A stretch of DNA of 61,628 nt from an uncultured Deferribacteraceae bacterium (GCA_947313825.1 CAMZNJ010000012.1:1-61628), one strand, 5' to 3'. Shown: positions 1 to 61,628, counted from the stretch's first letter. Made by a program: numbers and translations. Notes: generated from the letters alone by a model not told the origin.

Positions 1-138
1 TGTATCATGTATCATGTACCGTGTATCGGCTGAGTGTCTGAGCAGCTAAGCAGCTTGCCGGCACCTAAAAAACACCTACCATAACACAACTTGCCACTTT
101 TCTCAAGTAATAATACTAAACCGAAATAGTGTGTCAAC

Positions 139-777
139 TTAGTCTTTGCTAGGCAAAGAGGGTGTGCGGAACATATCGCTCAAGTTGATGTTGAAGAAGT
201 ATGTGCCAAGTCGAAGAATAACAATGAAGGCTATGACGAATAGTTGTAGTGCCGTGATGGCAATACCGTGGGCGTCAAGGGTGATGAGCCCAACATAGTA
301 CATGGCACCGCCAAGCAAGGCTGCTGAGGCATAAACCTCCTTACGCAAAACAAATGGTGTGTCCCCAGCCAAAACATCCCGTATCATCCCGCCACCTGTG
401 GCTGTAATCACGCCCATGAGAATGCAGGTGTACCAGTTCATACCCATGTCAAACCCTTTCTGCGTGCCGATTACAACGAAAACACCTAATCCAAGGGCAT
501 CAAAAATTACAACATATTTGTAAATATGATCCATGAACCTGTAAAGGGCATAACAGAAAATAATGGCAGCGATGATAATGTAGAGGTAGTTGACATCTTG
601 GAAAAATGCGGGGGGGGTTGACCCTAGGATAACGTCGCGGGTTACACCGCCACCGATGGCAACAGCGGCAGCTAAGGTGAAGGCACCGTAGAGGTCAAAC
701 TTTTTGTAAAAGGCTAGCATGACGCCACTGATGGCGAAAGCAAATACTCCGATGTAGTCCAATATTAGAAGTAGCAT
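139..777 (-). CDS. UPF0126 / TRIC-family (YadS/YicG-like) integral membrane channel protein
   Basis: 212-aa polytopic ORF built from two internal halves. Each half carries the glycine-rich GGGxxRD signature (AIGGGVTRDV and ATGGGMIRDV) typical of the paired UPF0126 domain. Confidence 0.8.
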   Translation of the reverse strand: MLLLILDYIGVFAFAISGVMLAFYKKFDLYGAFTLAAAVAIGGGVTRDVILGSTPPAFFQDVNYLYIIIAAIIFCYALYRFMDHIYKYVVIFDALGLGVFVVIGTQKGFDMGMNWYTCILMGVITATGGGMIRDVLAGDTPFVLRKEVYASAALLGGAMYYVGLITLDAHGIAITALQLFVIAFIVILRLGTYFFNINLSDMFRTPSLPSKD

Positions 778-801
778 GTTCCCCCCTGTTGCCCGTTGCT
801 C

Positions 802-1572
802 CTAGCCCCCAAGTGGCTGTGCCTGCCTTGAGTGTATCGTTTCCACTCGTGAGCACTGCTTTGCAACACTCGCACTATGAGTTACAACAACAATCGTAAC
901 TCCTTGCCTATTGAGATTGTGGAATATATTCATGATCATTTCAGAGTTTTCGTTGTCCAAGTTCCCAGTGGGTTCGTCGGCGAGTAGAACTGCGGGGTTG
1001 TTTGCCATGGCTCTTGCAATTGCAACTCGTTGCTGTTCCCCCCCTGATAGCTCTAGTGGGTAGTGTTCTTCTCGGTTAGCGAGCCCCATGGTTGCTAGCA
1101 GGTTGTAGGCTTTGTTTTTGGCTTCGTCATGTTCTTTGCCTTGTATCATCATGGGCATCATTACGTTTTCGCTAGCGGAGAGCTCGTTTAGCAGGAAGTG
1201 CGACTGAAACACAAACCCTACTTCTTTGCCCCTCATGTGAGCCAGTTCTTGTTTGTTGAGTGTGTTTAGTTGTCGTCCTTTGTATGTTATTGTTCCTGCT
1301 GTTGGGCTTTCGAGGGATCCCAGCATGTGCATGAGTGTTGATTTCCCTGCCCCCGACGCTCCAACTATTGCGATCATTTCGCCCTGCTGAATCTCCATGT
1401 TGTAGTTATCGAAAACCACAACTTCACCAGTACGATTGTGGTGGTATGTTTTCACAATTTTTTGAGCCTGAAAAATTGCCCCCTTAGGTGTGGCATTGTC
1501 GAACGTTTCGAACGGTGATGTGTGTTGTTGAGCGTTTTTTTTGCTATTGAGGAAGTTGAGTTTATGAATCAT
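802..1572 (-). CDS. lolD: Lipoprotein-releasing system ATP-binding protein LolD (ABC ATPase)
   Basis: Walker A GASGAGKST, ABC signature [14 protein letters not shown] and Walker B LLADEPTGNLD. Lies immediately downstream of, and overlapping, a LolC/E-type permease gene. The ATG at 1572 (MIHKL) is preferred over the maximal ORF start at 1608, which would overlap lolC by 47 nt. Confidence 0.85.
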   Translation of the reverse strand: MIHKLNFLNSKKNAQQHTSPFETFDNATPKGAIFQAQKIVKTYHHNRTGEVVVFDNYNMEIQQGEMIAIVGASGAGKSTLMHMLGSLESPTAGTITYKGRQLNTLNKQELAHMRGKEVGFVFQSHFLLNELSASENVMMPMMIQGKEHDEAKNKAYNLLATMGLANREEHYPLELSGGEQQRVAIARAMANNPAVLLADEPTGNLDNENSEMIMNIFHNLNRQGVTIVVVTHSASVAKQCSRVETIHSRQAQPLGG

Positions 1573-4211: not shown

Positions 4212-4322
4212 CTGCTTGCACTTGCGTTTACGTAGCCTGCTTGCGTTTACGTAGCATGCTTGCATGTGCGTTTACGTAGCCTGCTTGCATGTGCGTTTAC
4301 GTAGCATGTTTGCGTTTACGTC
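4212..4322. repeat. Intergenic tandem repeat, 21/25-nt unit GCGTTTACGTAGC(C/A)TGCTTGC(ATGT), about 4.5 copies
   Basis: Read directly from the sequence. Lies in the convergent spacer between the mdh stop and the astacin stop. Confidence 0.85.
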
Positions 4323-4346: not shown

Positions 4347-7337
4347 CTAGTTGGTGTACCAATTCTGCACAGCCGAACCGTCGCAAGGTGATAAGGTATC
4401 GATGTATGGGGCACGTCCATGGTTGAAGGAGTTTGTCGACTGGAAATACTTCACACCGTTGCACCCAACAACGTCTTTTTTGAGGAAGAACACATTGTAG
4501 TGCATAATTGAAGATACGTCGTAGTTAGGTGAGCCCACTGTTCGTTGAATATCTTTGTACGTAAACAGAGGTGTTTGTGTTTGCACTTTCCCCACAATGC
4601 GTACTTTAATTTCGGCACCACCGGCAAAGTTGTAGAGTGGTATTTTGCCGAAGTTTGTTGTATCGCTAGCGTCTTGCGAGGATACTGTGATGTATTCGTC
4701 CCTGTCGTAACGTTGGTGTTCGTGCCATGCTCCCAGCACGTGTCCAAGTTCGTGTAGAGCCGTTGCATTTACAACCGAGTCGGGGTATATTCCATGGTAG
4801 TTTGCCACTGTGTTTTGTGTGTCTAGTGTTAGGGTATTGATGTGGTTTGGGTTGGTTCCTGTGCCTATGTTTGCAAGTCCGAAACCGCCGGCGTTCCCTG
4901 TTCTGTAGTCCACCACAAAGCCGCTTGCCGTGGGGTTTGGAGTGTTGGTTACGTTAACAAACTGCACTTTGCCACCTGTGGCATTTGTCCATTCGCCCAT
5001 TGCCCTTATCAGTGCTGTTTTGTGTTCGGGGAGGATATTGCTGTCCCATCGGTAGCGTATAATACCTTTTGGCCATAGGTTCGTGCGTTCTTTGTCGTAA
5101 AATACCTTTGAGGTAATGAGCCCGTCGCCATAAATTGCGTTCCCAGTGGTTGTAAGCACTATGCCGTTCTCTTTGGCAACAGTTTTCATCTCGCTGAATA
5201 TTTTTGTAAGATCTTCGCCACGATTTTCAGCAATAATTAGTTTGAGTTTGATCGTATTCTCGATAGTGCCGTCGTTGTTGATGAGAATATCCCTGTCGAA
5301 GGTAACCCTGTCCCCCGTCAGGCTAATACTGGCAACACTTCGCAAGTCGTCGTCGCTAGGTTTGAGGTTGCCCCTTAGGTTGTTGTATTTTAGGCGGAGT
5401 GCGTTCATTTCGTCGGTGTAGAACACAGTAATCGTATTGCCGTTGGCGTCGGTTTTTTCTCTGCTTAAGGATTGTGTTTGCCCCCCGAGCCTGTCGTTGA
5501 TAACGTCGTTGGTTGTTGGGTAGTTCCCTGTGCGAGCGAAGTAGCTGCTGAGGTATTCGTCAGATGTTTGGGAGTCGGTGGCATAGGATTGCACAATTGC
5601 TAGGGTTTCGTTGATTTCGTCAGCTTCTAGGCTCAATTCGTCCCTGTATGCCTTTGCCACGTTGGTTGTTAGCACCGACATACCGCCGCCGCCACCACCA
5701 CTATCACCACCACTATCACCACTATCACCACTATCACCACTATCACCACCGCTATCGCCACTACCACTGTACCAGCTGAAAACAGCGGAGCTATCGCAAG
5801 GGGAGAGTGTGTTAATGTATGGTGATCGTCCTTTGTTTGGTGAGTTTACTGACTTGAGATAGGTTACGCCGTTGCACCCCACAACGTCTTTTTTGAGTAG
5901 GAAGCCGTTGTAGTGCATGATGGATGATATGTCGTAGTTTGGCGATCCTATGGTATTTTTGCCATTGTCGGGTGTAAACAGGATGGTGCTTAGTTCCACA
6001 TCTCTGACAACGCGTGCTTTCCTCTCTGCCCCCATTGCGTAGTTGTAGTACGACACCCTACCGTAATTTACGATATCAGCTCTGTTTTCATCGGTAACGA
6101 TAATATATTTGTCTCTGTCGTATCGTTGGTGTTCGTGCCATGCACCTATCACATGACCTATTTCGTGCAGTGCTGTTGCTTCTACTACAGATTCGTCGTA
6201 TTTCCCTTTGTAGTTTGCTTTTGTGTTTCGATAATCGAGCACTAGTTTTGTTGGTTCGGTGAGGTCGTTGTATGTGCCGATATTTGCCCATCCGAAACCG
6301 TTTGCTTCCCCGGTTTCGTAGTCCACCACAGCACCACCGGCAAAGGGGTTTTCCAGATTGGTTACGTCTAGAAATTGGATACTGTTCCTCCCTGCTCCAG
6401 CTTCCCATTCGTTCATTGCTTTGATTAGTGCTGCTTTGTGTTCGGGGATGACGCTGTCGTCCCATCGGTAGCGGATAATTCCGTCTTTCCATAGGTTTGT
6501 GCGTCTTTTGGAGTAGAATGCTTTTGCAACTTGATACCCTTCTTCTGAGGCATCGTCGTTGTTGAGGAGTGTGTCGCCGTGATCGTGGTCGTGGTCATCG
6601 TCGTTGTAATAGTTGTATGCTGTTCCAAGTTGAACACCCCTGTTTTCGGCAACGGTTTTTAGTTCTTCGAATACTTCGGTGATATTTTCGTTACGACTTT
6701 CGGCAATGATGAGTAGTAGGTTGATTGTGTTGGCTATGTCGCCGTCGTTTTTGATGAGTATGTCCCTGTCGAAAATAACGTTTTCGCCGTTTACGTTAAT
6801 TTCGGGCACACTCATTAGTTCGTCAGTTGTAGGTCTTAATGCCTTAGCGTGTCCGTTGTATTTTGTTGCGAGGGTGCGTATTTCGTCTCTGTATGAGAGT
6901 GTTACGGTGTTGCCTTCGTCGTCGATGTAGTCTCTGATTAGGTTCGCGGCGTTGCTTCCGAGTCGATCGCCCACAATGTCGCCGATAGTTGGTGTATCTC
7001 CGCCCCTTCTGTTTGTGAAGTCAGCAATATACTCTTCGGTGGTGAGCCCATCGGTGGCATACTCTTGGATGATTTCTAGTGTTGAGTTCAGTTCGTTTGC
7101 GTCTAAGTTGAGAGATATTGCGTAAGCTTTGGCTACGTCGCTTTCTAGTGTTTCGGGAACGATTGTGCTTCCGTTGCCATCGTCGGCAATGTAGAAAACC
7201 GGTTTGTCGTCGGTGGTATTTTCGGCAACATTCGTTGTTAATCCGCACCCGGCAACAGCCATAGCAATGATGAATAGCGAGGATACCCCCACGTACATCT
7301 TTATAGCCCGTCTTTTGGTAGTGAAGTATGACGACAT
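4347..7337 (-). CDS. Tandem-duplicated (two-headed) astacin-family M12A zinc metalloprotease, predicted lipoprotein
   Basis: Two copies of the extended astacin zinc signature HExxHxxGxxHExxRxDRD (HEIGHVIGAWHEHQRYDRD and HELGHVLGAWHEHQRYDRD), each followed by the Met-turn SIMHY. The N-terminus has a basic n-region and lipobox AVAGC. The halves are joined by a (GDS)n/poly-G linker. AAGGAG lies 7 nt upstream of the ATG at 7337; the maximal ORF starts at a GTG at 7343. Confidence 0.85.
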   Translation of the reverse strand: MSSYFTTKRRAIKMYVGVSSLFIIAMAVAGCGLTTNVAENTTDDKPVFYIADDGNGSTIVPETLESDVAKAYAISLNLDANELNSTLEIIQEYATDGLTTEEYIADFTNRRGGDTPTIGDIVGDRLGSNAANLIRDYIDDEGNTVTLSYRDEIRTLATKYNGHAKALRPTTDELMSVPEINVNGENVIFDRDILIKNDGDIANTINLLLIIAESRNENITEVFEELKTVAENRGVQLGTAYNYYNDDDHDHDHGDTLLNNDDASEEGYQVAKAFYSKRRTNLWKDGIIRYRWDDSVIPEHKAALIKAMNEWEAGAGRNSIQFLDVTNLENPFAGGAVVDYETGEANGFGWANIGTYNDLTEPTKLVLDYRNTKANYKGKYDESVVEATALHEIGHVIGAWHEHQRYDRDKYIIVTDENRADIVNYGRVSYYNYAMGAERKARVVRDVELSTILFTPDNGKNTIGSPNYDISSIMHYNGFLLKKDVVGCNGVTYLKSVNSPNKGRSPYINTLSPCDSSAVFSWYSGSGDSGGDSGDSGDSGDSGGDSGGGGGGMSVLTTNVAKAYRDELSLEADEINETLAIVQSYATDSQTSDEYLSSYFARTGNYPTTNDVINDRLGGQTQSLSREKTDANGNTITVFYTDEMNALRLKYNNLRGNLKPSDDDLRSVASISLTGDRVTFDRDILINNDGTIENTIKLKLIIAENRGEDLTKIFSEMKTVAKENGIVLTTTGNAIYGDGLITSKVFYDKERTNLWPKGIIRYRWDSNILPEHKTALIRAMGEWTNATGGKVQFVNVTNTPNPTASGFVVDYRTGNAGGFGLANIGTGTNPNHINTLTLDTQNTVANYHGIYPDSVVNATALHELGHVLGAWHEHQRYDRDEYITVSSQDASDTTNFGKIPLYNFAGGAEIKVRIVGKVQTQTPLFTYKDIQRTVGSPNYDVSSIMHYNVFFLKKDVVGCNGVKYFQSTNSFNHGRAPYIDTLSPCDGSAVQNWYTN
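5685..5768. repeat. In-frame 9-nt tandem repeat (ACTATCACC on + strand) encoding the (GDS)n/poly-G linker between the two astacin modules
   Basis: Read directly from the sequence. The translated linker is SGSGDSGGDSGDSGDSGDSGGDSGGGGGG. Confidence 0.85.
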
Positions 7338-7517
7338 AAGCACTCTCCTTAAAGCCCCTAGAGCATTGCTTTATTCTACTATTTTAACCCATTTAAAGTA
7401 AAGAAAAATTAGTCCACTTGTATTTTGTGTCTTTTGTTGTTAGAATGTGAATTAGGTGCAAACAAAATAATACACGTAATTTACGACTCTGCTAATTACG
7501 TTTAGGTTCTATTTTTT

Positions 7518-11767: not shown

Positions 11768-13306
11768 GTGCTGGTTATGCGTAGCAACAACAAAAATAAC
11801 TCAACTGAGGGCAAAAACACTACTTCACGCCCTGACCCCTCAGAGAACCTGTTCAACGCTGACGACCGCGAATACAGCACCTCAAATACCTCAACACACA
11901 CTACTAATGAAAAAGCGAAAGGACAATCGCAAACCCTAACTCGCATCATCTACACCACACTATTCGCACTATCCATCGTCGTAATCGTCCTGCTGTACCT
12001 ACAATACAAAACCTCCAAAGAGCTCGCCTCACTATCGCAAAACAGCAGCCTCATCTCACAAGTCCAACTCCTCGACTCCCCACCTGTTACCTCCAACATT
12101 ATCTTTCAGGCGGTCAAAGGTGTGCTCATGGATCTCGGCGGCAACAACAACGACATTGTCATCTCCAAACTAGACGCCAGCCAAACACCACCCGTTGTAT
12201 GGGTCGACATTACCCTCCGTGGGGGGAGCACCAACGGCGACACGGAAGAGGCGGAACTACGCCATACATTTATCACCAACGTGGAAACACTCCTACTCCC
12301 CACAGGCGTTACCATCGAAGACAAAGGGTTCCAGATAGACGTCCGTGGTCCCGAGTACACCATCATCCTGTTGCTCAAAAATAACACAGGCGGAATCGTG
12401 CCCCATGACAACACAGGAGACATTGGCGAATACAGCAACATCACCGACGATATCTTCACCGACGCCACACCCACAAACACCACCACAAACATCACGGCGA
12501 ACGAAGAACTCAGCACAGCCTACCAAGAGTTTGCTCAATCCCTCACGCCAGCTCCCCCTGCAGGTAAATCCCTCGTATTTGTCATCGACGACTGTGGCTA
12601 CAGCGACAACCTCACCACCCGCGTAACCAACATCAACCGGAACCTCACCGTCGCTGTTATCCCCTTTTTGCGTCATAGCGTTTCCTCTGCCGAGATTGCA
12701 CGCAACAATGGCAACCCCGTATTCCTACACCTCCCCATGGAGCCCTACCATAACGCCCCCATCATGAACGACCTACAAAACAGACTCCTAGTCAACATGA
12801 CGGCGGACGAATGGACACACCTTGCAACCATCTCTGCAGAAAATATCGGTGGCATCGACGGCATCGGTGGCATCGACGGCTTCAACAACCACGAAGGCTC
12901 ATACTTCACCGAAGGGGTCGATCGAATGAGCACCGTTTTGCAAGCAATGGCTCCTTTTACTAATCTGTTTCTGGACTCACGAACATCATCCAAATCCGTC
13001 GGCTACAGCACCTGCAAGGGTATCCAAGGCTACAACTGTGCGTCAAACAACTGGTATCTCGACAACAACAACGATTACGCCTACATCTTTAACCAAACCT
13101 TAGGGCTCACCAAATCCAAACGCAAGGATACGGTTGTTATTGCCCACTGTCGCCCCAAAACCGTGGACGCCCTCGAGCTTGCCATCCCCCTCCTTGTGGA
13201 GAATGGTTACAGCATGGGAACGGTTCCACTAGTGTCGAAGCCTGCAACCACGCTCCCTGACAGTGGCATGAGCAACAGCGATAACAACAACGATAACAGC
13301 AACTAG
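11768..13306 (+). CDS. Divergent polysaccharide deacetylase family protein (YibQ-like) with long N-terminal TM/low-complexity region
   Basis: The C-terminal half matches the YibQ family pattern (LVFVIDDCGYS, LTVAVIPF, VFLHLPMEP, FNNHEGSYFTE, LFLDSRTS). It sits downstream of envC, as in the E. coli envC-yibQ arrangement. Contains an 18-nt in-frame duplication (IGGIDG x2) at 12845-12880. Confidence 0.75.
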   Translation: MLVMRSNNKNNSTEGKNTTSRPDPSENLFNADDREYSTSNTSTHTTNEKAKGQSQTLTRIIYTTLFALSIVVIVLLYLQYKTSKELASLSQNSSLISQVQLLDSPPVTSNIIFQAVKGVLMDLGGNNNDIVISKLDASQTPPVVWVDITLRGGSTNGDTEEAELRHTFITNVETLLLPTGVTIEDKGFQIDVRGPEYTIILLLKNNTGGIVPHDNTGDIGEYSNITDDIFTDATPTNTTTNITANEELSTAYQEFAQSLTPAPPAGKSLVFVIDDCGYSDNLTTRVTNINRNLTVAVIPFLRHSVSSAEIARNNGNPVFLHLPMEPYHNAPIMNDLQNRLLVNMTADEWTHLATISAENIGGIDGIGGIDGFNNHEGSYFTEGVDRMSTVLQAMAPFTNLFLDSRTSSKSVGYSTCKGIQGYNCASNNWYLDNNNDYAYIFNQTLGLTKSKRKDTVVIAHCRPKTVDALELAIPLLVENGYSMGTVPLVSKPATTLPDSGMSNSDNNNDNSN

Positions 13307-15566: not shown

Positions 15567-15570
15567 TCAA

Positions 15571-16799: not shown

Positions 16800-16815
16800 A
16801 ACTAAATCTCCTTAC

Positions 16816-16850: not shown

Positions 16851-16867
16851 TCGCAAACACCTATTCA

Positions 16868-18256: not shown

Positions 18257-18308
18257 TAGTCTCTCCTTATGATATTCGTCTTGTTTCGGATGTGTTTATT
18301 TGTGTTTA

Positions 18309-49696: not shown

Positions 49697-49833
49697 AGAC
49701 GAACCCTCTTAAACAAATTAAGACTATTTTTATTTATATCAACTTCATTTATATCAACAATATTTAAAAAAGTAAACAGTTAGCAAAATCACTCTTCAGC
49801 AGCAAGGAAAACCACGTTGGCAGTATTACAGTG

Positions 49834-49925
49834 CGTTAACAGTGGCGAACCGTGTCGTGCCAAATACCATATTAGTAGCACTAGCTACACGTTAACAGTG
49901 GCGAACCGTGTCGTGCCAAATACCA
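49834..49925. repeat. 36-bp direct repeat CGTTAACAGTGGCGAACCGTGTCGTGCCAAATACCA, 2 copies with 56-bp period
   Basis: Exact copies at 49834-49869 and 49890-49925, inside a 770-bp ORF-poor region. Confidence 0.9.
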
Positions 49926-50467
49926 CGTGAGCTGTACTAATTATAAGTGTTCCTCGGGCTCGTGTCAAGGGAATATTGTGCCCTAGCACACAGTAAAGCA
50001 AGCTCCCCAACTTTGCTCTGTAAAGCAGTAATCTGCCTGTAAATAGGCACCCTACTGCCGTACTTGAACTACGCGATAATCTACTATTTGTAGCAAAATT
50101 ATCCCATGAGTACTGCAAATATGCCCTCGAGCAAGTCAGGCCTCGAGCAAGTCAGGGTTGGTAGCTCACAATTCGGCTCATCACCAATTAATAATATACT
50201 ATGCAATTTGCCCTTAGTCAACAATAAAAAATATTTCCTGAATACTTCTCTGATACTTAATATTTTTACTATTCGCTTTTGCACCGAGACGCAACTATGT
50301 GCTTAGAGTTTAGTCGCCACACACCTTCATTGGTTCTTTATTTTTTCTGTTTACGTGGCATATTTTTTGCTCAACAAACTCTATGACGCGTCCCTTACGC
50401 TATTGAATATATCTCAAGGTTCTGGTATGATCCTCTCAAGTGATTATCTCAGCTTGGTGCATAAATT

Positions 50468-51301
50468 ATGAAAAAATACGTTATCTTTCTTGTTATTGTT
50501 CTCGCGACGATGGCGATGGGTATTGCCGCTCAAACAAGTATCCCCGACTCCCTTCGCAAGTACTACCCACCATACTCCCACAACTATGAGTTCTACAACA
50601 ACATGCGTAATCAGGAGATCGCTTTGATGTCCCTCAAGGATGGCATCGACCGAGGCGACTGGGTTGCAATCGAGAAGTGGTCCCTGTCCCTCAGTTTTCT
50701 CAATCAAAGAGCCAACGCCATGGTTCCCGAGTGGAAGGACTACGAACGCGACCGCACCTACGTGGAGCTACTGAAGATTATCAACAGCAACAACTCAGAA
50801 AATAGGGGTATCGGTCAGATTTCGACCCTCTACAACACCGTCGTTGTTTCGTGTGATTCGTGCCACACCGTCAACCTTGCCAACACAAAACGTGTGTTCT
50901 ACTCCAATTTTGTAAACAGAAACACAACTATTCTGAGCAACTACAACAAACAGGTTTACACGTACAAATCGTACATGGAATTCATGAACAGCAACCTCAA
51001 GGGGATGGTTGTTGCCTCCCTAAACAGCAACTGGCGTAGCTCTGCACAGAAGTTTAACGCTTTCTTTTCCTCTTATGAGCAGCTTGAGGAGACGTGTGCG
51101 TCATGCCACAGCGATCAGGCTAGTATCGACCGCTTTTTTGGTAAAAGCTACCTACGCCAAAAAGCACGTATTCAGCTGGATATTTCCAAGCGTTTGTCCG
51201 ACAACCTGTCGTACGATGTTCGCAGCTTTGAGGACAACTATTGTCAGAGCTGCCACAACACGCATAGATGGACAGATCCTGCACTTTTCAACAAGAAATA
51301 A
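50468..51301 (+). CDS. Secreted putative multihaem c-type cytochrome (three CxxCH motifs)
   Basis: Signal peptide MKKYVIFLVIVLATMAMGIAAQ. Haem-binding motifs CDSCH (aa 129-133), CASCH (210-214) and CQSCH (259-263). The helical segments preceding the first two motifs are reminiscent of class II cytochromes c. Confidence 0.55.
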   Translation: MKKYVIFLVIVLATMAMGIAAQTSIPDSLRKYYPPYSHNYEFYNNMRNQEIALMSLKDGIDRGDWVAIEKWSLSLSFLNQRANAMVPEWKDYERDRTYVELLKIINSNNSENRGIGQISTLYNTVVVSCDSCHTVNLANTKRVFYSNFVNRNTTILSNYNKQVYTYKSYMEFMNSNLKGMVVASLNSNWRSSAQKFNAFFSSYEQLEETCASCHSDQASIDRFFGKSYLRQKARIQLDISKRLSDNLSYDVRSFEDNYCQSCHNTHRWTDPALFNKK

Positions 51302-52755: not shown

Positions 52756-53631
52756 GTGAGATCAAGAATGAACCATATTGCCAGCGAAATACTTAACAAC
52801 CACACAACACAACCACTCTACCAACAACCTGTTTCACTAGATGACAAATACAACATGGAAGACCTCGCCAACCTACTCCATAATACGTTTGCAAGACCAT
52901 CAGCATCAGCATCAGCATCGTCATCAGCATCGTCATCAGAAAACAACGCCCTTGACGAACTCAACAATGACAGTAGAAGTAACGACAACAGTACCGACGG
53001 CGATATCCGTACCGTAAATGTGGACCATGCCCGCAATATCCTCAACCACCTCTTGGCATCACTGGAATCCCACGGCACACAGAGCTCACACGGCTCGCAC
53101 GGCGGGTTTCAACACCCTCACCCCACTGCCCCAACACACACCACGCCCCACAACACAACACACCACAACGCAACACACCCCACTAGCGAACAGGTTACCA
53201 TTCGCGTACACCGTTCCCCCAATGCCAAGCTCCCCACCTACGGAAGCACAGAGGCTGCTGGTGCCGACATATCCGCACTCAATGGCGGCATAATCAACCC
53301 CGGTCAGCGTGTTCTCATCGCCACAGGGTTACGCATGGAAATCCCACAAGGGTACGAGATACAAATACGACCTCGTAGCGGTCTCGCACTTAAGAAAGGT
53401 ATCACCATGCTGAACACCCCCGGAACCATCGACAGCGACTACAGAGGCGAAATAGGACTCATCGCCATTAACCACTCCCAAGAAGTTTTCCGCTACGAAA
53501 AAGGGGACAGGCTTGCACAGGCAGTTGTTGCCCCCGTTTTACGTGCAACCTTTCATGACTCAGAACCACACCAATCCCTTAGCGAATCAGAGCGTGGGAG
53601 CGGCGGATTCGGCTCCACAGGGATTAGCTAA
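52756..53631 (+). CDS. dut: dUTP diphosphatase with about 140-aa low-complexity N-terminal extension
   Basis: The C-terminal about 150 aa carry dUTPase motifs ([40 protein letters not shown]). The N-terminal region is S/A/H/T-rich, and no ATG lies between aa 34 and the conserved domain. Confidence 0.85.
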
Positions 53632-53698: not shown

Positions 53699-54598
53699 AT
53701 GACATTTCAATACGGACACACTGTTGTACTAGTCAACGAAAAGGGGCACAAACACCTCATACCACTCAAAGAAGACGGGGTATTCCATACTCAATACGGA
53801 ACCATCACACACGAAAGCATTTGCAACTCTGGGGACGGTGCACGCGTACTCACCTCCAAAAAACACCCCTACTTCGCCTTCTCCCTCACCTACTCCGACT
53901 TCGTAATGAACATCAAACGTAACGCCCAAATCATCTACCCCAAAGACTCCTCCGTTATGATGACTTGGGGGGATATTTTCACCGGTGCAAAAGTTTTAGA
54001 AGCCGGCATCGGGCAAGGTGCGTTATCCATCAAAATACTGCAATCCATCGGTGGCGACGGACTACTCGTAAGCTACGAAAAACGTGAAGACTTTGCTCTA
54101 CAATCACAAAAGTTTATTCGCCAATACCTCGTCGAAAGCTCCAAAACCCCCCTCCCATTGGACAAAATGCACCGTGTGGAGATACGCGATATCTATGAAG
54201 GGATTGAAGAAACATTCGAACGAATCATGCTTGACCTACCCGAACCGTGGCAAGTTATCCCACATATGCACAACTCCCTCGAAAATGGCGGCATTGTTGT
54301 GGCTTACCTACCATCCATCATACAAGTATCCAAATACGTGGACGCACTGGAAGCATCAGGAATATTTCGCGAAATCGAAACTTTCGAACTAATACTCAGA
54401 CCATGGAAAGTTTCAGGACGTGCTGTACGACCCGAAATGTGGACTTACAACCACTCCGCTTTTATCATCAAAGCACGCAAAGTTGCCAAAGCTGACAACA
54501 AACCTAGCCAAACCCATAAAACTAGTGAAGCTAGTGATACCACTAACACCAACGATACCAACGATACCAACGATACCACGCCACAAAAGGAACAGTAA
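53699..54598 (+). CDS. trmI: tRNA (adenine-N1)-methyltransferase TrmI (GCD14 family)
   Basis: N-terminal beta-domain (HTVVLVNEKGHKHLIPL...HTQYGTITHESI), IIYPKDSS and SAM motif VLEAGIGQGALS. C-terminal (TNDTNDTND) tail from a 9-nt repeat. Confidence 0.82.
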   Translation: MTFQYGHTVVLVNEKGHKHLIPLKEDGVFHTQYGTITHESICNSGDGARVLTSKKHPYFAFSLTYSDFVMNIKRNAQIIYPKDSSVMMTWGDIFTGAKVLEAGIGQGALSIKILQSIGGDGLLVSYEKREDFALQSQKFIRQYLVESSKTPLPLDKMHRVEIRDIYEGIEETFERIMLDLPEPWQVIPHMHNSLENGGIVVAYLPSIIQVSKYVDALEASGIFREIETFELILRPWKVSGRAVRPEMWTYNHSAFIIKARKVAKADNKPSQTHKTSEASDTTNTNDTNDTNDTTPQKEQ

Positions 54599-54600: not shown

Positions 54601-55458
54601 ATGAACATACTACTCACAAACGACGACGGTTACGACGCACCCGGACTAAGAGCCATGCTCCATGAAGTCAACAAACATGACGCTATGGAAGCAATCTACG
54701 TCGCACCACACAAACACATGAGTGCAAAAAGCCACAGCGTTACCATATTCGAACCCATCAAACACTACGACCACCACGACGCAAACGGAAACCTCGAAGG
54801 CGTATCCGTCGACGGCACACCTGTGGACTGCGTCAACATCGCCCTAGATCGTATCGTAACCAACAAGCCGAACATACTCATCTCAGGCATCAACGATGGG
54901 GGGAACTTCTCCACCATCTCGCTCCTGTCCGGCACATACGCCGCCGCTGAAGCTGGTGCCAAAGCTGGCATCCCCTCCATCGCCGTGTCCCTCCTCACAG
55001 GGTTCGGAATCAAAGCTAGTAGCGACGACAGCATCCCCGACGGCATCGACCCCAACATCCTAGCTAGCATCGACTCCAACAACAGAGACTTCAGTGTTGC
55101 CGCAAACTTCGTCATGTTCTTCATCACAGAAATTATGCCACAACTCAACATCACAGGAGTACCCTTCTTCAACATCAACGTGCCACCACTCAAAAAAGAA
55201 CACATCAAAGGTTGGAAATTTACTAGCTTCAGCAAAAACAACTACTCAGCAAACTACGAAGTTAACGTGTCCCCCCAAGGTGAAAAATACTACTGGTACG
55301 ACTCACGAACCATTCACAACGATATGGCAGACATGAGACCCGATACTGACGACCTCGAACTATTCCGTGGATACATCACCGTCTCGCCATCGAAAATCGA
55401 CTTCACCGACCACGAAACACTAAACAAACTACTCAAACAAGATTTCAAAAAATACTAA
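54601..55458 (+). CDS. surE: 5'/3'-nucleotidase SurE
   Basis: MNILLTNDDGYDAPGL N-terminus (DDG motif), then GTPVDCV, SGINDGGN and SGTYAAA. Confidence 0.9.
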   Translation: MNILLTNDDGYDAPGLRAMLHEVNKHDAMEAIYVAPHKHMSAKSHSVTIFEPIKHYDHHDANGNLEGVSVDGTPVDCVNIALDRIVTNKPNILISGINDGGNFSTISLLSGTYAAAEAGAKAGIPSIAVSLLTGFGIKASSDDSIPDGIDPNILASIDSNNRDFSVAANFVMFFITEIMPQLNITGVPFFNINVPPLKKEHIKGWKFTSFSKNNYSANYEVNVSPQGEKYYWYDSRTIHNDMADMRPDTDDLELFRGYITVSPSKIDFTDHETLNKLLKQDFKKY

Positions 55459-55476: not shown

Positions 55477-58293
55477 GTGGTTGTAGAGGACAAAATATCG
55501 GACGCCAACAAACTAAACAATGGAACATCGCAACACGCCAATAGCCACATACGCGTTGCAGGACTGCTCACCCTTGCCATACTCACTGCACTCACTGCAC
55601 TCACTGCACTACTAATGCTCAGCACCGCTTACGCCATCGAACCGAAAAGCATCAAAGATGCCATCATCGGCTCACAACTCTCCAACGCAAACAGGTACGG
55701 CTCCAACACCGCAAACCCTGAAGCAGCATACACACTGGAAACCCTCACCACCAATCTCCAAGGGTACGAATCCAACTACGCATCATACAAAGAATCACTC
55801 GACAACCTCGTAAACGATACCCCGTACATGCGTCGAAACCTTCGTGGCATTGACGACTTACGTCGAAGCATCATCGTATCATTCCAACGGGGGAAGTATG
55901 CTGAAGTTGTGAGCTCCTACAACAACGAAAACCTCAACTCCTCTCTAAACCAATACAGCGACGAACTCAGCCTACTCTACAGCATCGCACTGCTACAACA
56001 AGGATCCTACAACGCCGGAACAGCCATACTCAGCAACCTTGCACAAAAACCTGATAGCAAAGATATCACCAAACACAACTTCAACCTCATCGCCATGGAT
56101 GTACTCGCACAATACGCTGTGGAGAACAACAACTTCGACCTATTCCTCAAATCGTTCAACCGATACGCAAACAAAGCATCAGACTACGCAACAGCCACAT
56201 ACCTGCAATACCTACTCGTAAACAGCAAATTCAAAGAACTCGAAAATATTGAAAAAAATAATCCGGAAATCAAAAAACGACTCAGAACAAACCCAAAACT
56301 CAACGAATTCAAAACAAAAGGGTACTACCTTACACGAAAATACGACAAAGTATTAACCTACGGACGCGAATTCAACACACCAAATACATACGACATTGTG
56401 CTGGATAGTGCCGCCATACTCGCCAACGCAACATACCTCGAATCCTACATACTCAGAATACCAAACGGCAAACTAACTAACACTGCCCAAACAAAACTCG
56501 CCATCACACTCGCAACCAACAACACCAACAACACAACCATACTCAACAAAAACAACGACGCCATACTAAAAGCACTCGAAAAACAGAACCAAGACTTCCT
56601 CGAAATCTACACCTACTACCAATACAAATTCAACAACAATATCAACACAACCATCGTCAACACCATCTACAACCAAAGCTCCACAATCGCACGTACATAC
56701 ATGGACACAGACAACACACTAAGACTAATCTCCAAACTACAATGCACAGACGCAATCACATACATCAACAAAAATATGCCCCGAATACCACTCGAAGTAA
56801 ACCTACTACTCGGCGAATGCCTACTAATCGACAACAACGAAATCGCTAAAAAATACCTCTACACATTCCTAGACAACACAAACAAACGCAACAACGACTA
56901 CTGGAAAGCAAAAAGCCTACTCGCACTCGCACTCTTCTCAAACAACGAAACAGTGGAAAGCAGCATCATCATTGACGACTGCAAAACAGACAACTGCAAC
57001 CTAGTCAGATCCTACTCCCAACTAAAACAACGCAAATACGTTACAGCCCTAAACACCGCCAAAACAATCCACAACCCCAGCCTCACAAACATCACCACAA
57101 ACATACAACTACTCAGCCTCTACGGACTAGGCAAATGCAACAACGTTATCGCCATCGCCAAAAACAACACCTTCAACTCCGAAACAACTTCATACGCAAT
57201 CGCAGACTGCTACCTCACACAAAATAACGAAAAACTAGGACTAAAATACCTCAACACACACATCAAAACTAACACAACTTACACCAAACTCGGCATGAAA
57301 TACTTCTTCAACAAAGAGGAATACAACAAAACAATCACCCTCGGAAACAACATCAATAGCCGACAACTCGACTCCGATATCGCACTACTACTGGGATACT
57401 CTTACCACTCAATAGGAGAATACAACAACGCTTACCGATACTACAAAGCAATCGCCACAACAAACAACTCAAACACACCAATGGGCATCGACAGCATGAT
57501 AAACATCTGGAGCAACGTTACCGCCTACAACGCCACACAAGATATCACAACAATACTACTCACAAACAAAAATATCGACAACCGTGAAGTATACCTAATG
57601 AAAGCCGCAACACTCTTCACCAAAAGCAACCTCATCAACGAAGCTTTCCAACTCGTAAACACCCTCTTTGACGACTACTCCAAACCTGAAGCCATACGTG
57701 GTGCATATGTTGTGCGAGCAGAACTGTTTTACCAACTGCAAAACTACAACGCATGCCTCGCTGACGTACAAACAGGACTCTCATACAAAAAAAACGACGA
57801 AGCACCACTACTCTACTACAACGCCCTCTGCAACGAACACCTCAACCCTGAAGCAAGCCTCAAAACATACCAACAACTAAGACAGTACCCCGAATTCGAA
57901 TACCTAGCTAACGAAAAAGTCATCAAACTAAGCGACAACCCAAGACTACTACTCGACTCCGCAAACTACTTCGCCGACAAAGACCAAAACCTCTACAACA
58001 AAGGGATACAAAAATTCCTCTTACTCGTACCACTCTTTGAACTAGCACAAAATACCAACTACCTACCCGTACTCGAAAACTCTGAAGACGCCAACACAAG
58101 AGCAAAAGGGTACTTCCTACGTGCACAACTCGCCGAACGAAATACCAATCACACAAAAGCAATCGCCAACTACCTACTAGCTTTCTACACAACAACAGAC
58201 GAAATTAGCAAAAAACAAGCTAAGGAAAACCTTGTCGAAATCTACACCAAACTCGGACTAACCGAACGTGTCGAAATTATCAACAAACTCTAA
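55477..58293 (+). CDS. Large (938 aa) N/T/K-rich TPR-like helical-repeat protein with N-terminal TM anchor
   Basis: GGAGG RBS with a GTG start. One TM helix contains a 9-nt repeat (LTALTALTAL). Helical repeat patterns run throughout (e.g. ALLLGYSYHSIGEYNNAYRYYKAI). No catalytic motif recognised. Confidence 0.6.
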   Translation: MVVEDKISDANKLNNGTSQHANSHIRVAGLLTLAILTALTALTALLMLSTAYAIEPKSIKDAIIGSQLSNANRYGSNTANPEAAYTLETLTTNLQGYESNYASYKESLDNLVNDTPYMRRNLRGIDDLRRSIIVSFQRGKYAEVVSSYNNENLNSSLNQYSDELSLLYSIALLQQGSYNAGTAILSNLAQKPDSKDITKHNFNLIAMDVLAQYAVENNNFDLFLKSFNRYANKASDYATATYLQYLLVNSKFKELENIEKNNPEIKKRLRTNPKLNEFKTKGYYLTRKYDKVLTYGREFNTPNTYDIVLDSAAILANATYLESYILRIPNGKLTNTAQTKLAITLATNNTNNTTILNKNNDAILKALEKQNQDFLEIYTYYQYKFNNNINTTIVNTIYNQSSTIARTYMDTDNTLRLISKLQCTDAITYINKNMPRIPLEVNLLLGECLLIDNNEIAKKYLYTFLDNTNKRNNDYWKAKSLLALALFSNNETVESSIIIDDCKTDNCNLVRSYSQLKQRKYVTALNTAKTIHNPSLTNITTNIQLLSLYGLGKCNNVIAIAKNNTFNSETTSYAIADCYLTQNNEKLGLKYLNTHIKTNTTYTKLGMKYFFNKEEYNKTITLGNNINSRQLDSDIALLLGYSYHSIGEYNNAYRYYKAIATTNNSNTPMGIDSMINIWSNVTAYNATQDITTILLTNKNIDNREVYLMKAATLFTKSNLINEAFQLVNTLFDDYSKPEAIRGAYVVRAELFYQLQNYNACLADVQTGLSYKKNDEAPLLYYNALCNEHLNPEASLKTYQQLRQYPEFEYLANEKVIKLSDNPRLLLDSANYFADKDQNLYNKGIQKFLLLVPLFELAQNTNYLPVLENSEDANTRAKGYFLRAQLAERNTNHTKAIANYLLAFYTTTDEISKKQAKENLVEIYTKLGLTERVEIINKL

Positions 58294-58317
58294 AAAATAA
58301 ACGGCAAAACAACGCAA

Positions 58318-59664
58318 CTACGTAATCTCACGTACCCAATGACCACGCCACAAATACACTGTGTAAAACAGCGACACCAATCCAAACGCCAACAACTCAG
58401 CCAAATACAAACTCGACAAACCCATATGAAACACATACAAAAATAGAAACATCATGGGCAAAACCAAAAACCACTGACGTACAATATTCACAACCATAAC
58501 AATAAATGTATTACCCGCACCCGTAACAACATTACGCATAAGAATCAAATAATTCACAAAAAACTGGTTCAACGCCAAAAGAACCAAAGGCGAGGTCGCA
58601 AGAACCACTAATCCCGCATCAGCAGTGAAAATACCCACCAACTGACGCTGAAACAACAAGAGCACAGCCATAGTAATAATACTCCACGTCGTAATCATAA
58701 CAATGGAAACACGCAAAACATCACGAACACGCTGTCTGTTGCCAGCACCAAGGGCATGACTAATAAACACCGACGCAACCAACGCAAATCCGAACGAAGG
58801 CATAGCCGAAAAACCCTTCATACTAGCCAAAATCGGCACAAGGGCGATACTACTCGTTCCCAAGGTCGCAACCATAAACGATACCACCACGGCTGACCCC
58901 TCAGTAAACATATCCGTTGTTGCCGTTGGCGTGCCATACTTACCTATTTGCAAAAATAAACGGGGCGAAAAATGAAAATCACCAAAAAAACTCAACCGCA
59001 ACGACGAACGACTCACAAATAACAAATAAAAAAATATGAAAGCACTCATGCTACGACTAATCAACGTGGACAACGCAACACCATTAACCCCCATCTCAGG
59101 GAACAACCACCAACCAACAATAAATACATAATTAAGCACAATATTAAGCACTACGGTTACAATAGTGAGGTTCATGGATATCATTGTGTTGCCCAAAGAA
59201 CGAAAAATAAAACCACCCGAAAACGCTATGCCCATCGGTATCACAGAATAAGATACGATTTTCGAGTATGAAATAAAATTCTCACGCACCTCATCCTCAA
59301 AACCATACAAAGAAGCAATACTACCCAATGAAAAATGCAGAACCAAGATGACAAAGATGGAGATGGCAATATTAATGGAAATGGTGTGCAGGGCTACCAA
59401 ACGGAACCCCTGACGGTTTTGTGCACCATGATAACGACCCATAATCGCCATGGCACCGTGGTTAAAGGAAAAAAGTGTGAGGGCTGCCGAAAGTACAATA
59501 TTAGCGTAACCAACAGCCGCTAACGCCTCAACACCTATCATACGACCAACCATGATGGTGTCCGTCATACCCGTCATCACACGCAAAGTCATGGCGATTA
59601 TCGACGGAACCGCCGCCACAAACATCAACCACGCCAACGACTTCCTTACCCTAAACCTAAACAT
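58318..59664 (-). CDS. MATE-family efflux transporter
   Basis: 448 aa, 12 predicted TM helices. MATE pattern with paired halves (MTDTIMVGRMIGVEALAAVG; second-half GAGNRQRV). Confidence 0.82.
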   Translation of the reverse strand: MFRFRVRKSLAWLMFVAAVPSIIAMTLRVMTGMTDTIMVGRMIGVEALAAVGYANIVLSAALTLFSFNHGAMAIMGRYHGAQNRQGFRLVALHTISINIAISIFVILVLHFSLGSIASLYGFEDEVRENFISYSKIVSYSVIPMGIAFSGGFIFRSLGNTMISMNLTIVTVVLNIVLNYVFIVGWWLFPEMGVNGVALSTLISRSMSAFIFFYLLFVSRSSLRLSFFGDFHFSPRLFLQIGKYGTPTATTDMFTEGSAVVVSFMVATLGTSSIALVPILASMKGFSAMPSFGFALVASVFISHALGAGNRQRVRDVLRVSIVMITTWSIITMAVLLLFQRQLVGIFTADAGLVVLATSPLVLLALNQFFVNYLILMRNVVTGAGNTFIVMVVNIVRQWFLVLPMMFLFLYVFHMGLSSLYLAELLAFGLVSLFYTVYLWRGHWVREIT

Positions 59665-59692
59665 AAACCCCTAAACATAAACCCGAAATGTC

Positions 59693-61072
59693 TTACTTAA
59701 TCTTTATCCTGAGCCAACTACCACGCCTGAAATAAACATACAGGATAATCGCAAAGGCACCAAAACCGAAAAACTCACCAATGTAAAACGCCTCCAAACC
59801 CAAGTCAAACGTGGACGCAACAATACCCGTTACTGGCAACACGAGCAACCACTGGCGAAGAGTTGTCGTCAACATGATGACTTTAGTCGCACCTGAACCG
59901 CGAAGAAAACCTGTCATCAAAATCACATAGATCAACAACGGCTGATTAATCGCAAAAATAAGCACGGGTATCCTAGCCGCAGCCAAAACGTCAGCATCAG
60001 AAGTGTACACCAATAAAATATAACTACCAGCAAACAAAAACAAGACCGTCATCAATAGTCCCCACGTAATCGCATAAACACTCGCAATACGACCAACCAA
60101 CACAGCACGCTGACTGTCCCCCGCACCCAAAGACTGACCGCACAATGCCGCCGACGCTATGGCCAAACCAACTCCCGGCATAAAAGATAACGACTCAATA
60201 TTCAACAACATAGGCAATGCCGCCTCTGAAGCCGTCTCAAGGTGGATTGCCAACATCACCAACAAAACATTAATCGACAAATTCACCATGAACTCCTCGA
60301 TAATAGTAGGAATACCCAAACGCAACACCTGACCGCTAATACCACGTGTCGGACGCATCAAACGAACCTTTATACGCGTAACACCCTTATGAACAAAAAA
60401 TATGTACAAATAGGCTGACGCCTCCAAATACCTAGCCAAAACAGTGGCAATAGCTGCACCCTTAACTCCCAACTCCGGAAAAAACCAAAAACCCGTTATC
60501 AAAACATAGTTGCCAACAATATTAAAAGCAATGGCAACAACAGCAATCTGCATGGGCAACTTCGTATTACCCAATGCACGCAAGGTTATCGCACCTGAAA
60601 ATAGTATGAAAAATGCCGGTATCGACAACAAAACAATGTAAACATAAGAAAGATACAATGACTCAACAACAGGCTCAAACCTGTAAAGCATCACAAGAAC
60701 AGATATAATCGGAAGCAACACCAAAACCAAAAGAACAGAAGCAAATATATTAAGACTAAAATTCTCCGCAATAACACGGCGAAGCTTAACCAACTTACCA
60801 CCACCATAGTAACGTGCTATAATCGCTGCCGCACCGTAATTGAAACCGATAACAGTAAACATGGACGTGTACATGAGCAAGTTCGCATAACCACTCGCCG
60901 ACAAAGCCTCCTTGCCCAAAAACTGACCTATCATTACAACGTCAACAAAACTTATCAGCGTACGCAACAACATATCAGCAACTGCAGGAGCAGCCATCAG
61001 CAGTACTGTTTTCGACAGCTGGGGGTTCTCACGAATTACGCGGGGGCGGGGGATATGTCTTGTCCAAATCAT
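59693..61072 (-). CDS. MATE-family efflux transporter (tandem paralogue)
   Basis: 459 aa, 12 predicted TM helices. FVDVVMIGQFLGKEALSASG and GAGDSQRA motifs. Clearly paralogous to the downstream gene. Confidence 0.82.
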   Translation of the reverse strand: MIWTRHIPRPRVIRENPQLSKTVLLMAAPAVADMLLRTLISFVDVVMIGQFLGKEALSASGYANLLMYTSMFTVIGFNYGAAAIIARYYGGGKLVKLRRVIAENFSLNIFASVLLVLVLLPIISVLVMLYRFEPVVESLYLSYVYIVLLSIPAFFILFSGAITLRALGNTKLPMQIAVVAIAFNIVGNYVLITGFWFFPELGVKGAAIATVLARYLEASAYLYIFFVHKGVTRIKVRLMRPTRGISGQVLRLGIPTIIEEFMVNLSINVLLVMLAIHLETASEAALPMLLNIESLSFMPGVGLAIASAALCGQSLGAGDSQRAVLVGRIASVYAITWGLLMTVLFLFAGSYILLVYTSDADVLAAARIPVLIFAINQPLLIYVILMTGFLRGSGATKVIMLTTTLRQWLLVLPVTGIVASTFDLGLEAFYIGEFFGFGAFAIILYVYFRRGSWLRIKIK

Positions 61073-61286
61073 GGCATCTCCTTCAAAATTGTTGAGCTAC
61101 GGCTGGAATCTGCATCGCGGGAATGCTCGAGCCTAAAACAAATCACAAAGCAAACCCAAAGATAATAAAAATTGTTAAGTAATCTTTTTGTAAATATAAA
61201 ATAAACCTATCCTAGTGTTATAAGCCTAAAAAATTGTTATTGCAAGCAAAATTAACAACCAAAATAACTACTTCTACTGCAATAGC

Positions 61287-61554
61287 ATAACGCAAAAGGG
61301 GGCAGGCTTTTCACAGCACTACGCCACGCACACCTACACACCTGCACACCTGAACACAAGCATCACGGACGTACGGACGCACACCTACACACCTGCACAC
61401 CTGAACACAAGCATCACGGACGTACGGACGCACACCTGAACACAAGCACCACGCCACGCACACAAGCACCACGGACGGACGTACGGACACACACCTGCAC
61501 ACCACACCACATAACGAAAAAGGGGGCAGGCTTTTCACAGCACTACCCCCCCCC
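61287..61554. repeat. A+C-rich minisatellite (51-nt unit x2 plus degenerate copies) bracketed by a 35-bp direct duplication
   Basis: The 51-nt unit GCACACCTACACACCTGCACACCTGAACACAAGCATCACGGACGTACGGAC occurs at 61328-61378 and 61379-61429. The flank CATAACG(C/A)AAAAGGGGGCAGGCTTTTCACAGCACTA occurs at 61287-61321 and 61510-61545. A C9 run lies at 61546-61554. Confidence 0.85.
61517..61554 (-). terminator. Possible poly-G/poly-C terminator for a minus-strand gene beyond the window end
   Basis: On the minus strand, G9-TAGTGCTGTGAAAAGCCTG-C5 is followed by TTTTT. The loop is long, so the call is weak. Confidence 0.3.
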
Positions 61555-61628
61555 TTCGTTGCAATAATTATTTACTTATAGTAAATAAACAGCACTCAGT
61601 GTCCCATTACTTGCCTTCAGGTGAATCT

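Follow-up and report, generated by a model that had tools for sequence, protein, structure and literature searches.

Tandem Repeat Arrays in the Window

The stretch of DNA analyzed here, referred to as the window, comprises 61,628 nucleotides from an uncultured Deferribacteraceae bacterium (GCA_947313825.1 CAMZNJ010000012.1:1-61628), and the features under study are the short tandem repeat arrays that lie both within its conserved genes and between them. About 90% of the window is located within open reading frames (ORFs). Arrays were searched for using the Tandem Repeats Finder (TRF) program, and the 92 rows obtained were merged into 58 arrays with a score of at least 30, of which 29 reached a score of at least 50 and are termed strong below. 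The strong arrays consist of units of 6-51 nt in 2-16 copies, occur at 4.7 per 10 kb and occupy 3.7% of the bases. Intergenic DNA makes up only ~10% of the window, yet 13 of the 29 strong arrays were found in it, and the other 16 lie within genes. Several of the largest arrays are situated between convergent genes.

An earlier reading of the window, made from the sequence alone (the sequence-only reading), had counted at least 15 genes with in-frame arrays. This estimate proved about right, since 13 genes carry arrays at the score of at least 50 and 19 at the score of at least 30, and every array on its list was found by TRF in the gene it had named. According to the Pfam analysis, the carriers include TsaD, Dus, a YibQ-type deacetylase, a double astacin, BioA, BioD, BioC, BioF, UbiE, KdsA (DAHP_synth_1), Dut, TrmI and SurE, the last being an addition to the earlier list. 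Thus, the gene names stood except for a 938-aa protein (55477-58293, plus strand) that had been labelled a TPR protein; no Pfam match was found for it at E <= 1e-5, and this label is thus unconfirmed.

The number of arrays greatly exceeds that expected by chance: when the window was shuffled 50 times with a second-order Markov model, the mean was 0.12 arrays and the maximum two. Natural controls were provided by loci that had been fetched for other purposes and were reused here. In 153 loci drawn from a wide range of bacteria (2.4 Mb), the density was 0.8-1.05 arrays per 10 kb (median 0.5-0.6), with 0.5-0.65% of the bases covered, and in seven loci of free-living Deferribacterales (146 kb) the corresponding values were 0.27 arrays per 10 kb and 0.25% of the bases. 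The comparison bears out the earlier claim that repeats occur throughout the window at a density unusual for bacteria. A SATFIND-like count (an exact decamer occurring at least four times within 800 nt, a criterion not identical to the published method) gave 114 per Mb for the window, a value scaled up from 61 kb, 66-178 for its relatives and 10 for the comparators; the published numbers of satellites per Mb across 119 bacterial genomes have medians of 0-3 and a maximum of 23 (PMC6749651).

Related sequences, located through exact-protein matches, were taken from contigs of three metagenome-assembled genomes (MAGs), namely GCA_947313785.1 (hereafter the close strain), GCA_947313805.1 and GCA_947313855.1, and from Logan assemblies of ERR7998034 and ERR7998035; all assemblies used are short-read MAGs or Logan contigs. 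The sister species referred to below has ~89% nucleotide identity to the window (~11% divergence). All three related assemblies carry arrays at a density like that of the window, with 4.5 arrays per 10 kb in the close strain and 4.1 in the sister species, and ~15 kb of lineage sequence beyond the window is array-bearing as well. With head-to-tail units, a copy number that varies between strains and a frequency above that of both chance and typical genomes, the arrays correspond to bacterial minisatellites, or variable-number tandem repeats (VNTRs).

Arrays within Genes

The arrays of the biotin genes all lie on the minus strand. In BioD, an in-frame array at 29682-29869 with units of 15/33 nt (15 + 18 = 33) in 11 copies encodes (HQDAR/HQDAQ)n, a 63-aa insert within the enzyme domain that is almost absent from the BioD of the sister species and from 20 other BioD sequences. 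A second in-frame array of this gene, (HGTKV/HGTKM)n at 29593-29634, has 2.8 copies of a 15-nt unit in the window and seven copies in the sister BioD (P0129). In the AlphaFold model of BioD, the predicted local distance difference test (pLDDT) score is above 90 for the core, 45-63 for the main insert and below 50 for the second insert. BioF contains an in-frame 18-nt unit in 2.1 copies at 32400-32436 (MGEELT x2) and an in-frame array built on 6 nt at 32650-32742 (GAGAGVGVGGVGVGGADADAGAGGVGGG); in GCA_947313805.1 these two arrays have deletions of 24 and 15 nt, respectively. The same assembly has 24 additional nucleotides in the BioC array, (STPP)n at 30566-30596 (in-frame, 12 nt, 2.6 copies), and 12 additional nucleotides in the array located near the N-terminus of BioA at 29469-29497, which encodes TPTPAPTPT in frame by 4.8 copies of a 6-nt unit.

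In TsaD (plus strand), an in-frame 9-nt unit repeated 5.4 times at 13391-13443 lies in a loop (GNAGNAGNTGN...). The protein has 357, 360 or 363 aa among the members of its cluster, the repeat loop being the sole difference, and the loop insert is absent from Deferribacteres homologues and from a relative with 78% identity. The TsaD of this relative (P0009, Logan contig of 1516 nt; identity of 74% in BLASTP and 78% when aligned) nevertheless carries a separate repeat, DTSADTSADTS, at its N-terminus, a hint that proneness to repeats is not confined to this genus. The YibQ-like deacetylase (plus strand) has two in-frame copies of an 18-nt unit at 12845-12880 (IGGIDG x2) and a single copy in the sister species.

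The astacin gene (4347-7343, minus strand) is a tandem duplication of a ~460-aa module, and its halves have 53% amino acid identity. The linker between the modules, (SGD)n, is encoded by an in-frame array at 5693-5767 (minus strand) with a 9-nt unit and super-units of 21/30 nt; the sister species has a 45-nt deletion in this array, and the protein is 977, 981, 986 or 998 aa long in four related assemblies.

Several arrays are located at protein ends. The N-terminus of UbiE/MenG, (TTGSS/TTDAS)n, is encoded in frame at 37137-37356 (minus strand) by 13.6 copies of 15/45-nt units; the protein has 314 aa in the window and 280 aa in the sister species, and the sequence MARDSLNNGEG is kept ahead of the array in both, which speaks for its translation. 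Dut (plus strand) has a 155-aa N-terminal extension with three in-frame arrays at 52898-53179 (units of 6/12, 9 and 15 nt). The non-repeat blocks between these arrays are well conserved between species, and the extension is therefore translated. The N-terminal array of KdsA, (SGN/SSGN)n at 43507-43631 (minus strand, 12/15 nt), is probably translated: the protein has 319, 323 and 312 aa in three genomes, always in frame and with a conserved MMHSS start, and a Met residue directly after the array is a possible alternative start. Upstream of the Dus domain (plus strand), 4.5 copies of a 6-nt unit are found at 14484-14510 (NTNTNTNTN). The Dus spacer of the sister species contains a perfect array of 10.7 copies of a 12-nt unit, and the called Dus gene starts downstream of it; translation of the Dus array is doubtful.

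At the opposite end of its protein, the TrmI array (54536-54579, plus strand; in-frame, 9 nt, 3.4 copies) encodes a C-terminal tail, (TND)n. This 33-aa tail is entirely absent from two genomes that are otherwise 97% identical, and the protein is 266, 299 or 308 aa long. SurE carries 2.1 in-frame copies of a 24-nt unit at 55032-55081 (plus strand). In the 938-aa protein, 3.3 in-frame copies of a 9-nt unit encode (LTA)n near the N-terminus (55581-55610, plus strand), and 21 nt of this array are deleted in the sister species. The coding strand of the 938-aa gene has an extreme skew (GC skew -0.45, AT skew +0.44).

The inserts of TsaD, BioD and BioF fall at variable loops of the homologous proteins. 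Since they are located inside domains, the arrays of TsaD, BioD, BioF, BioC, the YibQ-like deacetylase, SurE and the astacin must be translated. For an N-terminal array, an open frame is not in itself proof of translation, because the A+C-rich strand is free of stop codons in all frames. When translated, the A+C-rich arrays give peptides rich in Thr, Pro, His, Gln and Asn, and those in the opposite orientation give peptides rich in Gly and Val.

Arrays between Genes

The largest intergenic array (15568-15833) is located where the Dus and carbamate kinase genes converge and consists of ~16 copies of A+C-rich units of 15/31 nt. It is 163 nt shorter in the sister species, where the unit has diverged, and a promoter and terminator scan found no terminator-like site within it. 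Between the convergent MDH and astacin genes, a 25-nt unit is repeated 4.3 times at 4213-4321; there is a 6-nt indel relative to the close strain, whose contig ends within the array, and in the sister species the site is occupied by another array, with a 24-nt unit (L088 959-1071). In the close strain, the A+C-rich array between the convergent HIT and PGK genes (38491-38577, 8/36-nt units) is longer by 4 and 20 nt; a Logan contig ends within this array.

The intergenic cluster at 48556-48757, composed of A+C-rich arrays of 19/25 nt, has deletions of 87 and 25 nt in the close strain and is largely absent from the sister species. The A+C-rich array at 61326-61490 (8/16/51-nt units) has deletions of 94 and 39 nt in the close strain. 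At 22422-22542, 7.1 copies of a 16-nt unit correspond to approximately one copy in the sister species (a 100-nt deletion). Downstream of bioA, 2.2 copies of a 24-nt unit are present at 28071-28122, and this site in GCA_947313805.1 is occupied by a (TGGTGY)n hexamer array of ~160 nt.

A proto-array is found at 788-801, where the 7-nt unit GTTGC(C/T)C occurs twice within the 24 nt that separate the stop codon of a LolD-like gene from the start of the next gene. In GCA_947313785.1, this site has 17 copies, that is, 105 additional nucleotides (L083 5779-5897). The remaining intergenic arrays are those at 2948-2991 (12 nt, 3.6 copies, identical in the close strain), 20611-20678 (32 nt, 2.1 copies), 49731-49766 (15 nt, 2.4 copies), 50125-50156 (16 nt, 2.0 copies, perfect, and a single copy in the close strain) and 59650-59684 (14 nt, 2.1 copies, at the junction of two MatE genes).

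Two spacers have additional features. Compared with its flanks, the spacer at 49700-50470 (770 nt) shows much greater divergence from the sister species, including approximately ten indels of 6-57 nt; it looks like a turnover hot spot or a fast-evolving element that has escaped annotation. The ComF-like and KdsA genes are separated by an 850-nt spacer with a dispersed direct repeat of 84 nt (41940-42023 and 42210-42293, 93% identical, 270 nt apart). The repeat contains a G7...C7 hairpin and could be a duplicated terminator, a small RNA or an ORF.

Reading Frame and Selection

The period was a multiple of three in all 16 strong coding arrays and in five of the 13 intergenic ones (Fisher p = 3e-4). 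Periods of 7, 10 or 11 nt within coding sequences were found only in weak two-copy matches of 19-23 nt. In addition, the net coding indels between genomes were all multiples of three, and the frame was kept. Both the earlier observation that coding units are multiples of three, as far as strong arrays are concerned, and its interpretation as frame selection were thereby upheld.

Array-bearing genes are under strong purifying selection and are not decaying. The ratio of nonsynonymous to synonymous substitution rates (dN/dS) between the two species was 0.09 over 28 genes, and the values for single genes were 0.10 (TsaD), 0.03 (TrmI) and 0.04 (SurE). Relaxed selection or genetic drift was rejected as the main driver because of the dN/dS of 0.09.

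The frame of the arrays also bears on the suggestion that they are adaptive hypervariable or contingency loci, whose copy number tunes or diversifies proteins and their expression at the epithelium of the host gut. Exported or surface carriers do exist: the astacin protease with its two modules, whose length ranges over 977-998 aa in four genomes, and the 938-aa protein, whose array lies in an N-terminal hydrophobic region; there are also outer-membrane or flagellar neighbours. The 7-nt array at 788-801 precedes a start codon, differs by 15 copies between strains and could alter translation. Most carriers, in contrast, are cytoplasmic housekeeping enzymes (TsaD, BioA, BioD, BioC, BioF, UbiE, KdsA, Dut, TrmI and SurE) and not the surface, virulence or restriction-modification genes in which contingency loci are expected. 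The coding units are not of the frame-shifting lengths that mark such loci, with the 7-nt array at 788-801 as a possible exception, and the coding arrays are unable to serve as on/off switches because the frame is never switched. Promoters are not expected between convergent genes, yet many of the large arrays are situated there, and the array sequences are not conserved between species. An adaptive role of this kind is therefore improbable.

Instability between Strains and Species

The window was aligned with the close strain over 28.5 kb, a region that includes 16 strong arrays. The alignment contained 180 single-nucleotide polymorphisms (0.63%) and ~23 indels, nearly all of which were whole repeat units inside arrays, and nine of the 16 strong arrays differed by whole units at this low divergence. 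In coding sequences, the close strain has a 45-nt deletion in the UbiE array and additional nucleotides in the arrays of KdsA (15 nt), Dut (36 nt) and TrmI (18 + 9 nt). The intergenic indels measure 4, 6, 14, 16, 20, 25, 39, 62, 87, 94 and 105 nt. Several arrays are 100% perfect and are therefore young.

Over the larger distance to the sister species, most arrays of the window are missing, shortened or replaced by another unit at the same site. Relatives also contain new arrays, which include, in addition to those of the Dus spacer and of the site beside bioA, 234 nt inside an FtsX-like gene, a perfect array of 8.8 copies of a 10-nt unit, and 4.3 copies of a 28-nt unit.

Contigs of the lineage that end inside arrays include L083, L084 (window position 4251), L087 (window position 55610), L082 (window position 38566) and L081 (within the ubiE array). 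Since contigs stop in this way, the short-read assemblies are fragmented and the copy numbers are probably lower bounds. It could accordingly be asked whether short-read metagenome assembly, or the binning of mixed strains, has created the arrays or the differences between them: all sequences are MAG or Logan contigs, several of them end inside arrays, and the longest arrays (220-266 nt) approach the read length. Against this, four genomes that were assembled separately have arrays at the same loci, as do Logan contigs with 100% identity to the window. Most arrays are shorter than one read. The frame of the coding arrays is kept in every assembly and the flanking peptides are conserved, whereas random assembly errors would ignore the reading frame. 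An artefactual origin is consequently very unlikely.

Source Lineage

The source lineage is probably Candidatus Rimicarispirillum, a Deferribacterota midgut symbiont of Rimicaris deep-sea vent shrimp. The closest named homologues of TsaD belong to Deferribacteres (44-48% identity). The nearest relative of PGK among the GTDB representative genomes has only 54% identity, and the lineage is therefore not among these genomes. The protein clusters of the lineage consistently have four members, which come from sequential MAG accessions. Four Deferribacteres MAGs with 46.7-47.6% GC, sizes of 1.25-1.36 Mb and average nucleotide identity (ANI) of 87-97.6% were obtained from the midgut of Rimicaris exoculata (PMC9636832); they carry biotin and flagellar genes and were named Candidatus Rimicarispirillum, family Microvillispirillaceae (PMC9636832, Aubé et al. 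2022). The lineage studied here agrees with that description in GC content, number of genomes, ANI range, and biotin and flagellar genes.

The window contains a complete arginine deiminase cluster (15834-20559, minus strand) encoding arginine deiminase, ornithine carbamoyltransferase, a DcuC-type transporter and carbamate kinase, which suggests that ATP may be obtained from arginine. A similar pathway has been reported for the related gut Deferribacterota of Rimicaris kairei (PMC10344455), which agrees with the proposed identity. The flagellin gene (33736-36174, minus strand) encodes a protein of 812 aa, in which a very large central region is flanked by helical N- and C-terminal domains of the normal kind.

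In the main texts of PMC9636832 and PMC10344455, tandem repeats other than CRISPR are not discussed. CRISPR arrays lacking cas genes have been reported for two of the Deferribacteres MAGs, in both cases at the end of a contig (PMC9636832); given the repeat load of the lineage, these might be tandem arrays mis-called as CRISPR.

Origin of the Arrays

Among possible causes, the sequence-only reading had named the loss of mismatch repair. In this case, mutS/mutL would be lost and the repeats would be the footprint of a mutator state. Repair genes have often disappeared from the reduced genomes of host-restricted bacteria. The symbiont MAGs are indeed small, 1.25-1.36 Mb (PMC9636832), and the supplementary tables of PMC9636832 and PMC10344455 contain no mention of mutS, mutL, recJ, uvrD or recA. 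The mutational pattern points the other way. The transition-to-transversion ratio between strains is 2.9, an ordinary value and not the extreme transition bias of repair-deficient mutators, and only 3-4 of the ~23 strain-level indels involve a single base. MutS-type repair handles loops of up to ~4 nt, and the excess here is in units of 6-51 nt. Mono- to tetranucleotide repeats are scarce in the window, where homopolymers and short microsatellites are not enriched: the longest homopolymer has 9 nt, and there are eight short dinucleotide runs and no trinucleotide run of four copies. The dN/dS of 0.09 also argues against a general mutator load. Because the units are too long, the transition-to-transversion ratio is ordinary, one-base indels are few and short repeats are not enriched, loss of mismatch repair is a poor fit and is judged quite unlikely.

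Another cause proposed earlier was a dedicated repeat-spreading mechanism. This would be an element or enzyme that copies one repeat family to many sites, to which mis-recognized CRISPR-like or mobile repeats may be added. Its appeal lies in the CACCAR/YTGGTG hexamer family, which occurs in BioA and BioF and in the 160-nt intergenic array beside bioA in a related genome, and in the A+C-rich composition of many arrays on one strand. The CA-rich cores pointed out in the sequence-only reading are real strings, but they are shared no more than composition predicts: 23 pairs among the 29 arrays share 9-mers against a mean of 27 in composition-matched shuffles, a control that shuffles whole arrays and not units and may slightly overstate chance sharing. 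The idea of a shared core was rejected on this result. The units vary from 6 to 51 nt and their consensus sequences are unrelated; orthologous sites carry different array sequences in different species, including different units in the sister species, and the arrays have no common repeat sequence. Unlike CRISPR repeats, the copies are arranged head to tail without spacers, and tRNA and Rfam scans gave no matches. The A+C bias of the arrays mirrors the general skew of the window strand. A repeat-spreading mechanism thus appears very improbable.

The explanation that is considered likely is that replication slippage or unequal recombination proceeds at a high rate throughout the lineage and so makes and resizes minisatellites, and that selection removes variants breaking the frame or the fold. 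A lineage-wide process of the slippage type had been suggested earlier, and it fits the whole-unit changes in copy number between strains that are 99.4% identical. In the proposed scheme, a short stretch that already holds a small direct repeat would be duplicated, either by replication slippage or when sister or multiple genome copies recombine unequally. With at least two copies present, further slips would gain or lose whole units or blocks of units, and point mutations would afterwards blur the copies. Selection would leave the process running and eliminate the outcomes that break the reading frame or the protein fold. Between genes, any unit length would survive, and arrays would accumulate especially between convergent genes; within genes, only multiples of three would survive, at protein ends or surface loops, where the arrays would encode hydrophilic or glycine-rich, probably disordered peptides. 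Slippage or unequal recombination as the molecular step is suggested by the whole-unit changes, the perfect arrays, the super-units (15 within 45; 15 + 18 = 33), the two-copy seeds and the strict frame filter. Since substitutions are under strong purifying selection, it is more likely that the rate of array formation is unusual than that selection has collapsed.

Several points weigh against this explanation. Three of the ~110 comparator loci of at least 15 kb (L025, L126 and L138) have a local density similar to that of the window, which is therefore extreme and not unique. The word genome-wide is an extrapolation from ~77 kb of lineage sequence, or ~6% of a ~1.3-Mb genome whose size is taken from PMC9636832 and depends on the probable identity of the organism. 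Slow removal of arrays might equally account for their high standing density. Exact copy numbers and some differences between assemblies could be assembly effects, and long arrays may be collapsed. Finally, the N-terminal arrays of Dus, KdsA and BioA would be translated only to the extent that conservation of the frame indicates it.

As for the root cause of a high slippage or recombination rate, two candidates may be put forward as speculation. One is the loss of fork-repair or single-strand exonuclease functions, by analogy with the proposal for Sodalis pierantonius (PMC4948707). The other is recombination among genome copies in elongating, non-dividing cells; symbiont cells have been reported to elongate without division (PMC9636832). 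A bolder version, offered tentatively and held to be rather doubtful, is that Microvillispirillaceae might be in a heritable "minisatellite mutator" state, due to changed fork or single-strand exonuclease functions or to recombination in filaments with multiple genome copies. They would then be the most tandem-repeat-dense bacteria known, with Plasmodium-like low-complexity inserts amid strong purifying selection.

Comparison with Known Systems

The behaviour of the repeats is of a known type but apparently unreported for this lineage, and it is notable for the density of arrays and for the number of core enzymes involved. If the window is representative, the lineage would be at or beyond the upper end of the recorded tandem-repeat density of bacteria. 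As more than half of the arrays are translated in core enzymes under strong purifying selection, mutational input can be separated from relaxed selection more cleanly than in classic endosymbionts, and the lineage offers a natural system for asking which replication and repair functions normally suppress bacterial minisatellites. In practical terms, the arrays fragment short-read assemblies, may be confused with CRISPR arrays, and inflate or shift gene calls; they are also potential markers, at very fine strain resolution, of symbiont transmission among vent shrimp.

In the contingency loci of Haemophilus, Neisseria and Mycoplasma, slipped-strand mispairing likewise alters the copy number of short repeats, but their units of 1-8 nt act on surface or restriction genes, in which they change the frame or the spacing of the promoter. 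In Plasmodium falciparum and Dictyostelium, housekeeping proteins contain strain-variable, hydrophilic repeat peptides in loops or termini, whose origin is attributed to slippage. These inserts resemble the translated arrays described here in their location in loops and termini of conserved enzymes. They differ in belonging to eukaryotes with an extreme A+T bias and in consisting of Asn/Lys or Gln runs, whereas the present lineage is a bacterium with 47% GC and units rich in Thr, Ser, Gly, His, Asn and Asp.

Bacterial VNTR loci, which serve for strain typing in, for example, Mycobacterium and Burkholderia, have head-to-tail units of 6-60 nt that vary between strains, with multiples of three predominating in genes (PMC6749651). 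The difference is in density, with a published maximum of 23 per Mb (PMC6749651) against ~114 here by methods that are not identical, and in the carriers, which are typically surface or PE/PPE-type proteins and here are core metabolic enzymes. Candidatus Sodalis pierantonius is also host-restricted, and slippage between direct repeats is a dominant class of its mutations, ascribed to lost recombination and fork-repair functions (PMC4948707). Its slips are strongly deletional and inactivate genes, whereas in the present lineage both expansion and contraction occur and the genes are intact under purifying selection.

The closest precedent is Ehrlichia ruminantium. Like this lineage, it has a small (~1.3-1.5 Mb) genome of a host-dependent bacterium with an exceptional load of tandem repeats, which expand and contract between strains and break assemblies (Frutos et al. 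2006, via PMC10710844 and PMC7343930). According to the same sources, the repeats of E. ruminantium are mostly non-coding, its intergenic regions are very long and its coding ratio is ~64%. Here, by contrast, ~90% of the window lies in ORFs and conserved enzymes contain, in translated form, over half of the strong arrays, and the organism belongs to Deferribacterota, has 47% GC and is an extracellular gut filament.

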